Shown in pieces: positions 301 through 52,185 of a stretch of 64,000 bases of DNA. Position numbers and translations under genes: made by a program. The stretch is from Eledone cirrhosa. Taxonomy: Eukaryota. How positions within the stretch are numbered: position 1 is the first letter of the stretch; each line of letters begins with the position of its first letter. The notes under the pieces are model-generated. The model searched no databases, was not told the DNA's origin, and saw only the letters and a program-made list of their open reading frames with translations. The stretch lies in contig OZ024748.1 in NCBI GenBank assembly GCA_964016885.1, positions 33,914,001-33,978,000 of the forward strand. The letters run 5' to 3'.

Positions 301-765
301 TAAATATATATGTATATATATGTATATATTTATATGTATATATATATATATGTATATATATATATGTATATATATATATGCATATATATATATATATATA
401 TATATATATATATATGTATATATATATAGGTATATATACGTATATATATAGGTATATATATGTGTATATATGTATATATATGTATATATATATATGTATA
501 TATATGTATATATATATATATGTATATATATATATGTATATATATGTATATATATATATGTATATATATATATGTATATATATATGTATATATATATATA
601 TATATATATGTATATATTTATATAAGTATATATATATATGTATATATTTATATAAGTATATATATATATGTATATATATATGTATATATATATGTATATA
701 TTTATATAAGTATATATATATGTATATATATATGTATATATATATATATATATGTATATATACAA
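301..765. repeat. (TA)n microsatellite with interspersed TG; first of many similar tracts (e.g. 2983-3232, 23120-24018, 30308-31846, 48300-49315)
   Basis: Direct reading; the YIYIYI ORFs in the track are artefacts of these tracts. Confidence 0.97.
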
Positions 766-804
766 TATATTAATAAATGGAAACTATATTTATAAAACCA
801 TAAT

Positions 805-870
805 TATTTTATTATATATATTTCAAGGGCAACCAAGGTAAATTATGGTCCGCTTTCATCAGATAAAATA
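805..870 (-). ncRNA. Type I hammerhead ribozyme motif
   Basis: Minus strand: tattttat-CTGATGA-aagcggacca..tggttgccctt-GAA-ATATATAT(palindromic stem III)-A-ataaaata; 8-bp stem I. Confidence 0.75.
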
Positions 871-1158
871 CAGATTTGTTTTATAAATAAATATTGACAT
901 ACCCAGAAAAAAGACAACCTCAACGGTTGAAATTCGCTGGATACATATATATATACACATATATATATTTATATATATATATATATATATATGTATATAT
1001 ATATATATATATATATATATATATATATACATATATATATATATACATATATATATATATACATATATATACATATATCCATATGTATCCAGCGTGTTTC
1101 AACCGTTGACGTTGTCTTTTTTCCGGGTATGTCAATATTTATTTATAAAACAAATCTG

Positions 1159-1224
1159 TATTTTATCTGATGAAAGCGCACCATAATTTACCTTGGTTGC
1201 CCTTGAAATATATATAATGAAATA
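1159..1224 (+). ncRNA. Type I hammerhead ribozyme motif
   Basis: tattttat-CTGATGA-aagcgcacca..tggttgccctt-GAA-ATATATAT-A-atgaaata; stem I has one G-U pair. Confidence 0.75.
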
Positions 1225-1368
1225 ATTATGGTTTTATAAATATAGTTTCCATTTATTAATATATTGTATATTTACTCCACTAATTTGTCAAGTGCTTTAT
1301 ATCAGTTATAAAAAAATCTTAAGCTTGTTGAATCCCAACAAATTAAATATAACCTCTGCATATATGTA

Positions 1369-2980
1369 TATCATCATCATCATCATCATCAACGTTTAAC
1401 GTCCGTGTTCCACGCTTGCATGGGTTTGGACGGGGGTAGTCCCACTTGAGGCAAGAGTGATTGTCTTGCTCGCATAGGACTGTCTGGCAGGTTTTCTACA
1501 GTTGGATGCCCTTCCTAACACCAACCACATTTACAGCGTGGGTCTGGGAGGTTTTTACCGTGTTGCCTACACGGCCACATTACAGCGTGGACTGTGTGTT
1601 TTTTTGTCGTGACACCTACACGATCTCATTTGTTTCGGCCTGGATGGCGCGGCACCAACATAACTTTACATAGAACGGGGTGGTGTGGATGGGGTGGGGG
1701 TGGTGGGGGTGGGACGGGGTGTATTTTGTTAGAGATGCCTACTGGCTGGAGTAGGTTTTACTATATATTTAGGTAAGGCGGGTCTTCTCTGTTACTGAGT
1801 ACCGCCAAAGGTCTCGGTCCAGTGACATTGTCTTGGAGAGGTGTAAGTGTGTGATGTCGGAGTTTATCAGCTCGTCCCAGGTTTTTCTAGGTCTGCCTAT
1901 TCCGTGACTACCGTCTATCTTTATTGCCCTGCACTTTGTTATACAGCTATCGACTTTCATGCGCATCACGTGTCCATACCAACGTAGCCTTCTCTCGAGT
2001 AAACAACATCTGATCCTTCTTATCTCTAATTTTTTCCTTAGTTCGTTTATGCTTTGCCGTTCACGTATATTACTGTTACACATCCAGCGGAGCATGCAAG
2101 CTTCGTTCCTCTCTAGTCTGCGTATATCCTCTGCACACAATGCCCAGGTCTCACTGCCATGCAGCATTGCTGTTCGTATGCAGGCATCGTACAACCTGCC
2201 TTTCATTTTTAGGGAGAACCCTTTAGCAGCTAATAGTGGTATAAGCTCTCTGAACTTTTTCCAACCAGTTCTGACTCTAGCTACAGTACTTTCAGAGCAC
2301 CCTCCCCCACTGCTGATTTTATCGCCCAGGTAACGGAAGCTGTCCACTATTTCTATAGAACCCTCTGCGCAATTGAAAGAGCTAGTATTTTGTGGGCACT
2401 TGCTGCTACTTATTGCACCAGAACACCGGCCACATGTAAAATCTATGTTCTTAGCTTACCTGTGATCCCACTACATCTTTTATGCACCCATACTTTGCAT
2501 TTAGGACATAAAATGGAGTTTCTACCTACGCCTTTCCTACACACCGAGCACGACCATTTCCCAGAAGGGATCGCCGCCTTGTTTTCTTTCCTACAAACTA
2601 GAACTTTGGTCTTAGCCAGGTTAATTTTAAGTCCTTTTGACTCTAGGCCGTGCTTCCATGTTTGGAATTTCTTCTCTAGCTCGGCCATTGATTCCGCTAT
2701 GAGTGTCAGGTCGTCTGCGTATAGGAGTTCCCATGGGCAGCCTGTCTTGAACTCCTCTGTTATAGCCTCAAGGGCAATAATAAATAGTAGGGGGCTGAGA
2801 ACAGAGCCCTGATGGACGCCAACTTTTACGCTAAACTCTTCACTATATTCGTTGTTAATTCTAACCTTGCTGACTGTTTCTTTATACATGGCTTGTATAG
2901 CCCTCACAAGCCATTCGTCAACGCCTAGTTTTCTAAGAGCCCACCAGATAATGGAGCGGGGGACTCTGTCGAAGGCTTTC
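1369..2980 (-). mobile_element. 5'-truncated RTE LINE copy (same family as the 9681-12656 ORF), with (GAT)n tail and a frameshift near 2450
   Basis: ORFs 2443-2907 and 1769-2347 match the intact ORF ([16 protein letters not shown]); (CAT)n at 1371-1390; both ends abut TA repeats. Confidence 0.95.
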
Positions 2981-3355
2981 TCATATATATATATATATGT
3001 ATATGTATATATATATGTATATATATATGTATATATATATGTATATATATATATATATGTATATATATATAATTATATATATATATGTATATATATATAT
3101 ATATGTATATAGATATATATATATATATGTATATATATATGTATATATATATATATATATGTATATATATATATGTATGTATGTATATATATATATATAT
3201 GTATATATATATATGTATATATATATATGTATATTGGTAAACGGAATTGAAAATGCTGACAAATTGTTCACAGTTGAAAAATGGTTTAATTAGGAATAAA
3301 AGAGTATTAGTGATTGTATGGGTTAGTATTCAGTTGTGGTTTTAAGTTTTTAAGT

Positions 3356-49878: not shown

Positions 49879-50066
49879 AAGGTCGGTGAATTGGCAGTAT
49901 CGGTAGAGGGTAGGACGCCATGCTTTCTAGCATAGTTACGTCCCTTTACAGTCTGAGTTCAAATCCCGCCGAGGTTAACTTTGCCTTTCATCCTTACGGG
50001 GTCGATAAAATAAAGTACCAGTAATGTACTGGGTAATTGCTGGCCTTGTGCCTAAAGTAGAACCAA
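49879..50066 (+). mobile_element. tRNA-derived CORE-type SINE resembling octopus OR-family SINEs
   Basis: A-box tggcagtatcgg, B-box gagttcaaatcc, core gcctttcatcc..ggggtcgataaaataaagtaccagt, (ATT)n tail; family name is from memory. Confidence 0.75.
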
Positions 50067-50273
50067 TTATTATTGATTTATATATATAAATATGTATAAT
50101 ATATATATATATATATATATATATATATATTTTTATATATATATGTATAATATATATATATATATTTTTTAATATATATATATATATATATTTTTATATA
50201 TTTTTTTATTATTCAGAGACTGAAAAAAAAAAATGGCGTAGACATACAACACAACAGGAGGAAAAAATATAAC

Positions 50274-50314
50274 ACCACTGACGATGTTGCAGATGTGCAA
50301 CGAAAGATTTATGT
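50274..50314 (+). ncRNA. Minimal hammerhead motif (weak stem I) in an element ending ~50570
   Basis: ca-CTGACGA-t gttgc agatgt gcaac-GAA-AGATTT-A-tg. Confidence 0.6.
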
Positions 50315-50880
50315 AAATTATGTAAACTATATATATGTGTTTGTGTCTATATTGTATCTGTATTATTTTTGACCGTCGGTCAGTCAATGGCAACATTGAG
50401 GACCGAGTAAGTTAGATCGCAGATATAAAAGACAGCGAGAAGCGAAAACCAACCAAACAGTGAGTGTGTTCTGTTATTAATTCTGGCAATATTACGCAAA
50501 TATGACCCTCCCCAAGTATAACAATATCTGTTTCGACACACGATTTCATATAAAAAACCTCGCTAAACTATATATATATGTATGTATGTATAATATATAT
50601 ATATATATATATGTATATATATATATGTATGTATAATATATATACATGTATGTATTATATATATGTATGTATAATATATATGTATGTATGATATTATATA
50701 TATGTATGTATTATTATATTATACATATGTATGTATTATATATATGTATGTATGATAAATATATATATATATATATATGTATATATATATGTATGTATGT
50801 ATGATAAATATATATATATATATATATGTATATATATATGTATATATATATGTATAATATATATATATATATATATATAT

Positions 50881-51546
50881 AAGAGAGTATTGAAGTTTGC
50901 TTGAAGCATTGTGGAACAATAAGTAAATATCTTTAAGTCGTTTGGAAGCCTTGACAATGCAAATGGGTAAATCTCCGGGTAACAAGGTCCGGTGGTGGAG
51001 AGAGAGATGTAAGTGGGTGTACGTTGAGATGCGTGGTGTGTATAAGATGTGTGAGATGTGTAGAATGAAGGGAAGAGTATAAAGGATAAAAATAAAAATT
51101 ACAACACAAGAGAGAGTTACCTTGGGAGAGATTTAATAGTCCCTATATATTTCGGATTCACATCCATCAACTGGGGTTTTTTTCCTGGGTGGGGGAAAAG
51201 GTTGTCTGTCGGACAAGATATTCAAAACAACAAACAGCGAAAGACGCGTTCCGGACTTGTCCGACAGACAACCTTTTCCCCCACCCCGGAAAAAAAACCC
51301 AGTTGATGGATGTGAATCCGAAATATATAGGGACTATTAAATCTCTCCCAAGGTAACTCTCTCTTGTGTTGTTATTTTTATTTTTATCCTTTATACTCTT
51401 CCCTTCATTCTACACATCTCACACATCTTATACACACCACGCATCTCAACGTACACCCACTTACATCTCTCTCTCCACCACCGGACCTTGTTACCCGGAG
51501 ATTTACCCATTTGCATTATCGAGGCTTCCAAACGACTTAAAGATAT
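50881..51546. mobile_element. Foldback: arms 50927-51217 / 51256-51546 plus left tail; degenerate HHR at 51298-51332
   Basis: Inverted arms; cc-CAGTTGA-t ggat gtga atcc-GAA-ATATAT-A-gg. Confidence 0.75.
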
Positions 51547-51615
51547 ATATGTATAATATATAGATATATATAATATATATATAAGTATGTATAATATATA
51601 TATATATATATAATA

Positions 51616-52185
51616 TGGGAGGGTCATGTTGCCAATAAGAAACACACGCACCAGTTGTTTCACTTCAATTTATTATAATAAATTTATAATAAATTTATAA
51701 ATTTATAAATTTCTGGTTGGTTGGTTCCACAACCAGATAGTTGTTTATATATTGTCATAGTTCTTTCGTCACACACTCTGTGACCTCTTCAGTGACTGGG
51801 GATTCCTTTCTTTGTTTCTGTGCCTCTCCTTTGTTCTGTCCTACGCCATTTTGTTTCTGTGTGTGAGAAACAAAATGGCGTAGGACAGAACAAAGGAGAG
51901 GCACAGAAACAAAGAAAGGAATCCCCAGTCACTGAAGAGGTCACAGTGTGTGTGACGAAAGAACTACGACAATATATAAACAACTATCTGGTTGTGGAAC
52001 CAACCAACCAACCAAAATTTATAAATTTATAAATTTATTATAAATTTATTATAATAAATTCAAGTGAAAGCAACTGGTGCGTGTGTTTCTTATTGGCAAC
52101 ATGACCCTCCCAAAGTATAACAATATCGGTTTCAACACACGATTTCAGATAAATAATCTTGCTAAACAAATTCAGAAACGAAATA
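51616..52185. mobile_element. Second copy of foldback element A; HHRs at 51754-51796 (-) and 51928-51970 (+)
   Basis: Homologous to 29641-30310, with a different inversion point (~51866) and the same right tail. Confidence 0.85.

Follow-up and report, generated by a model that had tools for sequence, protein, structure and literature searches.

What kind of element leaves insertions that are mirror images of themselves, and by which route do such copies arise? The window (the whole 64,000-nt stretch of Eledone cirrhosa DNA analysed here) holds eight of them, belonging to six families (A to F), and they are the known footprint of endonuclease-bearing Penelope-like elements (PLEs), for which both the inverted layout and the two reverse-transcription start sites bounding the tail have already been published. 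In self-alignments of the eight loci, the arms of every locus (8/8) are inverted and 85–100% alike, and the host DNA at their flanks shows no inverted duplication. In each of them an antisense arm on the left is followed by a sense arm on the right, which leaves the two 3' ends pointing outward into (TA)n or TA-rich sequence; one end is tailed, the other tail-less. The first-pass annotation had described outward-facing foldbacks with a minus-strand left arm and a plus-strand right arm, both 3' ends pointing into (TA)n, and this is borne out at 8/8 loci, TA-rich flanks included; its remark that Penelope insertions often carry an inverted pLTR with a short tail agrees with the layout given in the available text of PMC8557442 and PMC3846280.

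771..1360, locus 1, family D: tail-less arm on minus (~771-941), tailed arm on plus (1079-1360; tail ~1276-1360, ~85 nt), ~137 nt of (TA)n/(CA) filler between them; both arms begin at the fixed 5' boundary of family D; hammerhead-like cores at 862 (-) and 1167 (+)
3234..5627, locus 2, family B: tail-less inverted pLTR on minus (3234-3849); sense arm (3846-5627) covering the ORF's 3' end, which encodes GIY-YIG, then the 3' UTR and, at 5594-5627, a 34-nt tail
3836..4444, plus strand, locus 2: 5'-truncated PLE ORF with GIY-YIG (Pfam PF01541, E 6e-7)
19922..22871, locus 3, family C: tailed arm on minus (~19922-21085), its tail of ~140 nt (~19922-20061) lying outside the interval annotated at first pass; tail-less arm on plus (21085-22871), outreaching the tailed arm by 756 nt on its 5' side; hammerhead-like core near 22763 (+) and 20175 (-), seen by eye
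29641..30310, locus 4, family A: tail-less arm on minus, tailed arm on plus, tail 30252-30310 (59 nt); minimal hammerheads at 29837 (-) and 30053 (+)
36231..39550, locus 5, family F: array of a non-coding 466-nt hammerhead unit in two arms; minus arm of 4.38 units with its long end at unit position 460 and a 69-nt tail (36231-36299); plus arm of 2.76 units with its short end at unit position 391
38267..38269, locus 5: CTG overlap at the central joint
47362..48023, locus 6, 467-nt sister subfamily of F: sub-unit insertion; tailed arm on minus, with a 65-nt tail and a hammerhead at 47691; tail-less arm on plus, beginning inside helix II
50881..51546, locus 7, family E (3' end of an autonomous PLE): tailed arm on minus, tail ~41 nt; tail-less arm on plus, reaching 40 nt further 5', up to the fixed boundary of family E
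51616..52185, locus 8, second copy of family A: tail-less arm on minus, ~10 nt short of the usual family-A end; tailed arm on plus, tail ~60–66 nt; hammerhead cores at 51792 (-) and 51932 (+)

Loci 7 and 8 are neighbours sharing a (TA)n tract. The one-sided tail, at first noted in most insertions, is present in all eight, and the 35–70 nt then allowed for it proved too narrow, the actual range being 34 to ~140 nt. Contrary to the first-pass claim, a hammerhead is not present in every left arm: locus 2 has none and locus 7 only a degenerate UUGAUG...GAAA motif, which the minimal-hammerhead descriptor does not match. Neither that descriptor nor Rfam finds a hammerhead in locus 2 or in the whole 4809-nt family-B unit, while the core of locus 3, missed by the descriptor, is visible by eye and folds. 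By family, a minimal hammerhead is thus present in A, D and F, seen by eye in C, degenerate in E and not found in B; the available text of PMC8557442 describes a hammerhead in the pLTR as usual, not universal, in PLEs. In the Rfam scan of the window, HH9-like matches scoring below the gathering threshold occur at loci 5 and 6 only; these were kept, and nearly all of the 145 matches, being microRNA families on microsatellites or hairpins, were discarded.

By sequence, the arms of families A, B and E are 3' parts of elements encoding a reverse transcriptase (RT) and a GIY-YIG endonuclease. Family B is a young autonomous PLE, with a 784-aa frame in the sampled copy L153 that contains RVT_1 and GIY-YIG domains; family E has RVT_1 and a sub-threshold GIY-YIG in L290, and family A, also the 3' end of an autonomous PLE, has RT-like and GIY-YIG-like motifs discernible by eye, without a Pfam hit. 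A CxxxxCxxC motif precedes the GIY-YIG of family B, a feature tied to the Neptune/Nematis clades in the available text of PMC8557442 and for family B a lead only. For family D, the linked frame has no Pfam domain and no PLE ORF was confirmed; for family C (~2-kb unit), neither an ORF nor an autonomous partner was found in seven fetched regions. Family F consists of tandem non-coding 466-nt units, each with a type I hammerhead (seven cores in the window), and no autonomous partner was found among the matches listed for the 466-nt and 467-nt units. Partial-tandem pLTRs with an inverted 5'-truncated copy occur in families A (L288), B (L150, L151, L246), C (L281, L283) and E (L290, L291).

Does this layout hold elsewhere in the genome? 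The searches scored only the ~40 best candidates each, with a bias toward long, young copies, and most queries included the tail, the tail-free or neutral samples being family C, a second family-B search and family F. Polarity, which the first-pass annotation proposed to check across genome copies, is non-random: among the matches listed, families A to E show 109 head-to-head against 5 tail-to-tail junctions, and all two-armed 466-nt arrays (24/24) and all two-strand loci of the 467-nt sister subfamily (19/19) are head-to-head. Three of the five tail-to-tail cases are neighbours with (TA)n between them. The fold-back is not universal, since single-armed copies account for 13/49 family-B loci and 6/30 466-nt arrays among the matches listed; the two-armed form is nevertheless the majority outcome in family B (36/49, among the same matches), and tandem forms are found as well among the sampled copies.

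Ends are bimodal in all five tallied families (A to E, among the matches listed), falling at two end sites, and in family F the short and long ends lie at unit positions 386–391 or 459–461. Single-armed copies terminate at either of the two sites, short ends sit in AT-rich motifs grading into the TA target, and in tandem copies the family-B tail continues into the 5' frame of the next unit. Long and short ends are almost always paired: the 109 junctions of families A to E among the matches listed comprise 84 long/short, 2 long/long, 0 short/short and 23 unscorable (thus 84 of 86 scorable pairs), short/short pairs being under-sampled in A, D, E and the first B sample because those queries contained the tail, and the 466-nt arrays listed are long/short in 21 of 22 scorable cases (p 5e-6 against free choice). 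Exceptions to the pairing include L188, which is long/long, and L089, which is short/short with a diverged right arm.

Inversion points were said at first pass to differ between sister copies, which is often so, but they are partly fixed in three families, the tailed arm beginning at one fixed 5' boundary in 22/30 family-D and 11/30 family-E loci among the matches listed. A splice acceptor was considered for the fixed boundary of families A, D and E, and dropped because the sequence upstream of it differs between copies. The CTG microhomology claimed for the array junction is exact, and microhomology is enriched across genome copies: among the listed junctions without insert, 15/40 overlap by at least 3 nt against 4–7% in simulations (p ~1e-8), and only 6/40 are blunt against 54–58% (p ~1e-7). 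Another 32 of 72 junctions were scored as gaps, some being artefacts of mismatches that halted exact extension, and one was counted twice (L129 = L151). Locally templated inserts are found in L065, L082, L156, L161 and L166, that of L156 being of snap-back type, and one central junction contains 284 nt, in cDNA orientation, from a distant open reading frame. Similar antisense/sense arm joints occur in contigs of an independent sample (X1/X2), and no contig spanning the window's own CTG junction was found in the contigs of four sequencing runs. A 495-nt contig in run X4 resembles one collapsed unit and was kept out of the evidence.

Two-ended priming at two fixed RNA sites, with the cDNAs joined centrally, is the likely origin of the two-armed copies, with a probability that we put at about 0.75. 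One endonuclease break in (TA)n would allow both 3' ends to prime reverse transcription separately, so that from one DNA end copying would begin at an inner RNA site of fixed position and from the other at an outer site 34–140 nt downstream, after which microhomology-type end joining, presumably by host repair, would unite the two antisense cDNAs centrally before fill-in. An asymmetric protein dimer may allot one of the RNA sites to each end of the break, many short arms may be run-off products that stop where an RNA begun in the pLTR has its 5' end, and single-armed copies would reflect a second end that failed to prime; the non-coding families (F, probably C) may borrow the PLE enzyme in trans. 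The polarity, the two end sites per family, the long/short pairing, the independent arm lengths and the junctions with microhomology and inserts are features of the copies themselves, and the steps are modelled by analogy on published in vitro work with another PLE, that of the anole, in which both strands are cleaved and extended, two internal start sites define the tail and a dimer is predicted (PMC11167929). Two primings and a central joining had been suggested at first pass; bimodal ends, pairing, out-reaching tail-less arms and junctions all speak for them, on the combined basis of sequence and the anole experiments, and the long/short asymmetry is not reproduced in vitro, since PMC11167929 saw no start-site difference between strands.

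Could a single priming suffice, the cDNA folding back to prime itself at a short complementary site, so that the tail-less arm copies the tailed one and is stopped or cut at the inner site? Self-priming of this kind is suggested for Penelope inverted repeats of A. vaga in the available text of PMC3846280; it fits the junction microhomology and the snap-back insert of L156, allows for a tailed arm that is the longer one (47/84 pairs among the matches listed), and would explain why the short arm of L065 matches an inner block of its own long arm. Yet the tail-less arm outreaches the tailed arm on the 5' side by at least 20 nt in 17 of the 84 listed pairs; with three partial tandems dropped (leaving 14) and L153 and window locus 3 added, 16 non-tandem insertions have tail-less sequence that the tailed arm lacks (2.8 kb of it in L153), so that neither arm is a copy of the other and a single-primer fold-back cannot be the only route. 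In locus 1 and L177, moreover, both arms extend to one common fixed 5' boundary, filler separating them, and in L070 and L086 the unit variants of one arm do not mirror those of the other. Fold-back from one primer is unlikely as the origin of these copies. Two cDNAs would also be made if the short end were set by endonuclease resolution of an intermediate instead of by a second priming, as the available text of PMC8557442 has it for the tail and as the AT-rich surroundings of short ends might suggest; this is decidedly improbable, given that reverse-transcription starts have been mapped to both tail boundaries in vitro (PMC11167929) and that single-armed copies end at either site.

Very improbable, too, are two independent insertions head-to-head in one (TA)n tract, or a later duplication of one arm by repair, recombination or replication fold-back. 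Such tracts do gather many insertions, neighbours sharing one at L012, L023, L029 and window loci 7/8, but most arms abut without TA between them, the two arms belong to the same family and carry the same source markers (21/22 of the listed 466-nt arrays), long/short pairing is nearly strict, and a single 11–12 nt target duplication frames both arms of L073, the sole array in non-(TA)n DNA; against later duplication stands the lack of inverted host flanks in the self-alignments of the eight loci. Private variants fill entire 466-nt arrays, two of them being present in every unit of locus 5, and among the matches listed sister arms are closer to each other than to the median other copy in 13/14 (A), 8/34 (B), 3/9 (C), 16/23 (D) and 8/13 (E) pairs; marker sharing and closeness taken together fit one RNA template as well as two. 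Fold-back DNA transposons or MITEs, whose long terminal inverted repeats in TA targets look alike, retain almost no probability: the centre varies from copy to copy, so the replicating unit is not the fold-back, and these variable centres together with the RT linkage refute the DNA-transposon reading. The TIR-type structure named at first pass as contrary evidence was not seen, ends being asymmetric and centres copy-specific, the arms are 3' parts of RT and GIY-YIG elements, and single-armed and tandem forms exist.

A wider version of two-ended priming, in which an asymmetric dimer makes it the normal PLE route and the 466-nt retrozyme is a circular RNA copied round from both ends, the arrays being fossil rolling-circle products, is put forward tentatively, at slightly under even odds; the 5' ends of array arms are not clustered at the predicted cleavage site (2/52 against 2.3 expected). 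Long double-stranded RNA, editing and small RNAs from these loci are a matter of speculation, and a check for fossil ADAR editing in 276 arms from five families showed A>G singletons to be in no excess relative to T>C ones (at most three per arm). The counts do make sharp predictions for an in vitro system, namely one long and one short end per product, independent arm lengths and a repair-type central joint.

How do these insertions compare with known systems? PLEs with an inverted 5'-truncated pLTR, as presented in the available text of PMC8557442 and PMC3846280 (Pen2a_Av in the latter), share the head-to-head copy, the one-end tail, pLTR tandems, microsatellite targets, a target duplication of ~10 nt and an RT with C-terminal GIY-YIG. 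The one-end tail contiguous with the ORF start, typical of endonuclease-bearing PLEs, is found here too, and exceeds the published 30–40 bp in four families (A, C, D and F, 59–140 nt). The origin of the inverted repeats and one-sided tail is called an open question in PMC8557442, and in the available text of the same two sources self-priming or endonuclease resolution is invoked rather than two primings; long/short pairing and arm-length independence are counted here. No two-ended PLE model was found in the literature searched, the scope of which left aside PLE papers of 2004–2006 and supplementary figures that may draw one.

PAc (Poseidon of Anolis, PMC11167929) has the same two fixed internal start sites with a spacing equal to the tail, a tail running into the ORF start in tandem copies as in family B, AT-rich targets and extension of both strands, and does not need hammerhead cleavage; its ends are AC-rich, whereas those of families F and C are U-rich, and inverted insertions are not addressed in that work, its one "inverted" being a blocked oligo. 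LINE-1 twin priming and the postulated "dual priming" (available text of PMC2837659) likewise involve priming by both nicked strands, a central joint with little or some microhomology and one target duplication, but use a variable internal site and give non-overlapping fragments, whereas the sites here are both fixed and lie close together, the overlap of the arms is almost complete, poly(A) is absent and the two-armed form is the majority outcome (36/49 family-B loci), which sets these copies apart from LINE-1-type events. Animal non-LTR retrozymes, in the accessible text of PMC7229834 and bioRxiv 10.64898/2026.07.22.740005, have the same non-coding tandem units of a few hundred nucleotides, each with a type I hammerhead, and LINE or PLE enzymes are proposed there to copy them from circular RNA; the word "inverted" is absent from the main text of PMC7229834. 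Family-F arrays differ in being two-armed with PLE-type fixed ends, and it is by these ends that the hammerhead retrozyme becomes tied to the PLE machinery, a connection argued earlier from co-occurrence and pLTR similarity.

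The inverted repeats that the first-pass annotation had placed at eight loci were recovered at all eight by self-alignment, and the sequence read directly bears out their layout, with the left arm antisense, the right arm sense, and both 3' ends abutting TA-rich flanks. These Penelope-like (PLE) insertions, assigned to families A to F, share the window with other elements:

771..1360, antisense then sense: locus 1, family D
3234..5627, antisense then sense: locus 2, family B
19922..22871, antisense then sense: locus 3, family C
29641..30310, antisense then sense: locus 4, family A
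36231..39550, antisense then sense: locus 5, array of family F
47362..48023, antisense then sense: locus 6, 467-nt sister subfamily of F
50881..51546, antisense then sense: locus 7, family E
51616..52185, antisense then sense: locus 8, family A
9564-12656, 1361-2980, 16230-18090, 32930-34050, 41293-44918, 26165-29302, 58909-62492: further non-LTR retrotransposon frames
14500-15534 (GIY-YIG match at 14896-15531), 52450-55970, 6780-7148: more PLE-like frames
6047, 34688 (minus), 50278: extra hammerhead-like cores
32009, 52454, 55717: 140-nt double repeats resembling pLTR parts of another family

The non-LTR frames lie mostly at TA or trinucleotide tracts, and two of them are stop-free over more than 1000 codons. 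A tail (an extra 3' terminal stretch) of 35-70 nt had been attributed to most insertions; in fact all eight combine one tailed and one tail-less end, and tail length by family is 34 nt in B, 36-41 in E, 59 in A, 65-74 in F, about 85 in D and about 140 in C. The hammerhead claimed for every left arm is weak at locus 7 and was not found at locus 2, the 4809-nt unit of family B giving no match on either strand to a minimal-hammerhead descriptor, nor to Rfam. The CTG overlap at the junction of the window array is exact. The feature is real and its architecture already known; it represents no new class of system.

The same polarity recurs across the source genome (3.0 Gb, 1796 contigs). The search for family F gave 312 matches among 39 scored candidates, and 30 arrays were sampled, comprising the window array and 29 of the loci among the matches listed (the other 162 matches lie outside that set): 24 are two-armed, all antisense-then-sense, and six single-armed. 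Of the 22 arrays that could be scored, 21 are long at one side (unit position ~460) and short at the other (386-391), which departs from free choice with p = 5e-6. In two loci (L083:2960-2975, L084:4744-4760) the second arm measures merely ~13-15 nt yet terminates at the short site. Among the matches listed for the sister subfamily, every locus with hits on both strands (19/19) has the antisense-then-sense order. For families A to E, a script applied to 204 partly overlapping locus records, de-duplicated by junction context though a few duplicates may persist, returned 109 head-to-head junctions (3' ends outward) against 5 tail-to-tail, the latter being three neighbours with (TA)n between, one pair with a 152-nt spacer and one internal rearrangement. 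The head-to-head ends pair long with short in 84 cases, long with long in two and short with short in none, with 23 unscorable because an arm was broken up or extended beyond the fetched locus; one long/long case (L126) is a partial tandem whose short end lies further out (L246). A hand count puts 36 of 49 distinct family B loci in the two-armed class and 13 in the single-armed one. Outside C, F and the second B search, the sampling is skewed towards copies that are long, young and tailed. Distinct PLE families are also stacked within one (TA)n tract (L202, L213, L289), one beginning at another's end.

Such paired ends could arise by fold-back, the tail-less arm being copied from the tailed cDNA of a single priming, or by two primings, both ends of one break priming reverse transcription at two fixed RNA sites and the cDNAs being joined centrally, as the first-pass annotation had proposed. 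Under fold-back the tail-less arm could never extend further 5' than the tailed arm, nor, having no tail, could it template the latter unless a tandem supplied the tail. The tailed arm does reach further in 47 of the 84 long/short pairs, and the arms end within 20 nt of each other in 20, but in 17 it is the tail-less arm that extends further 5', by 20 nt or more; of these 17, 14, including window locus 7, are left after dropping the partial tandems L095, L288 and L291. Two added cases are L153 (2.8 kb further) and window locus 3 (756 nt); in L230 the arms measure 87 nt (tailed) versus 1334 nt. These counts exclude fold-back as the only route, and two primings with central joining are well supported by them.

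Seventy-two central junctions, where the arms meet, were scored in families B, E and F. The 40 without insert show overlaps of at least 3 nt in 15 (4-7% simulated) and are blunt in 6 (54-58% simulated). The remaining 32 have gaps, some of them artefacts; in many, repeats templated from nearby sequence are present. Such microhomology and templated-insert joints may reflect polymerase-theta-type repair. One family B junction (L244:3371-3654; G000:C1:62560370-62560653) has captured a 284-nt segment that matches just one other site, G000:C3:323489407-323489690, single-copy and within an ORF of at least 746 codons with Ser/Lys/Pro-rich repeats; its left-cDNA orientation is that expected from a template jump. 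L073, the sole array to lie outside (TA)n sequence, has both arms enclosed by a target duplication of 11-12 nt. Contigs of an independent sample contain antisense/sense arm joints at other positions and short ends joined to TA; none spans the window's own junction.

Locus-specific unit variants are common to both arms in 21/22 arrays, and in 13 of those 21 the shared markers differ from the commonest type. Divergence between sister arms falls below that to the median other copy in 13/14 pairs of A, 8/34 of B, 3/9 of C, 16/23 of D and 8/13 of E, a signal weaker or absent in B, C, D and E, B being nearly invariant. Both arms therefore derive from the same source, one molecule and two transcripts of one locus being indistinguishable. 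In L070 and L086 the variant patterns of the arms are not mirror images, which suggests separate templates or positions, an appearance that later unequal exchange could mimic. Family F arrays would fit rolling-circle copying of circles: private variants run through whole arrays (two occur in all units of the window array), variants recur every 2, 3 or 4 units inside one arm (L086, L087, L070, L068), and array 5' ends are unrelated to the ribozyme cleavage site (2/52 within 10 nt, 2.3 expected). Copying from long tandem transcripts is a possible alternative to circles.

As to the identity of the families, a tandem copy of B yields its 4809-nt unit, the tail continuing into the 5' frame of the next unit; with a 784-aa frame containing RVT_1 and GIY-YIG, B is a young autonomous element. 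In several young copies (L151, L153, L246) the B ORF is split at one common site, the 784-aa RT-EN frame being preceded by a separate upstream frame, presumably by a shared frameshift or an intron. Family E has an RT and a weak GIY-YIG match; A has RT-like and GIY-YIG-like motifs by eye, without Pfam match, and L288 shows the complete order pLTR, ORF, pLTR plus inverted arm. Family C, apparently non-coding, has a unit of ~2 kb that is found in partial tandems too. Family F consists of 466-nt hammerhead units that encode no protein, in arrays 99-100% identical over many contigs. Family D continues at least 1.3 kb upstream, where no PLE domain was confirmed. A single 5' boundary marks the start of the tailed arm in 11/30 cases for E and 22/30 for D, whose query began at that boundary itself; at window locus 1 both arms start there, with microsatellite filler between. 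Reverse transcription running off the 5' terminus of an RNA initiated in the pLTR may account for the boundary. Many arms of A, D and E share such a boundary (e.g. window ~1073, ~51217, ~51868), which is probably where pLTR transcription begins.

Long dsRNA from these loci, as a substrate for ADAR or siRNA production, would be a speculative consequence; the element copies bear no sign of editing. The same layout is described in canonical PLEs and Naiads (PMC8557442) and in A. vaga, with self-priming proposed (PMC3846280); minimal hammerheads in pLTRs include opposite-strand pairs 100-700 bp apart (PMC4209133), retrozymes are proposed as non-autonomous PLE partners (PMC7229834; bioRxiv 10.64898/2026.07.22.740005), and twin and dual priming are described for L1 (PMC2837659), bioRxiv 10.1101/2024.12.14.628481 offering nothing specific to this comparison. 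Older subscription papers and supplementary figures aside, no published statement of a two-ended mechanism for PLEs was found; the present counts make a stated open question testable. PMC11167929 describes two internal start sites whose spacing equals the tail, both strands cleaved and extended, and a dimer predicted. Inverted insertions, as found here, lie outside that paper's discussion. The two-ended mechanism, well supported by the survey, is a short step from published biochemistry.
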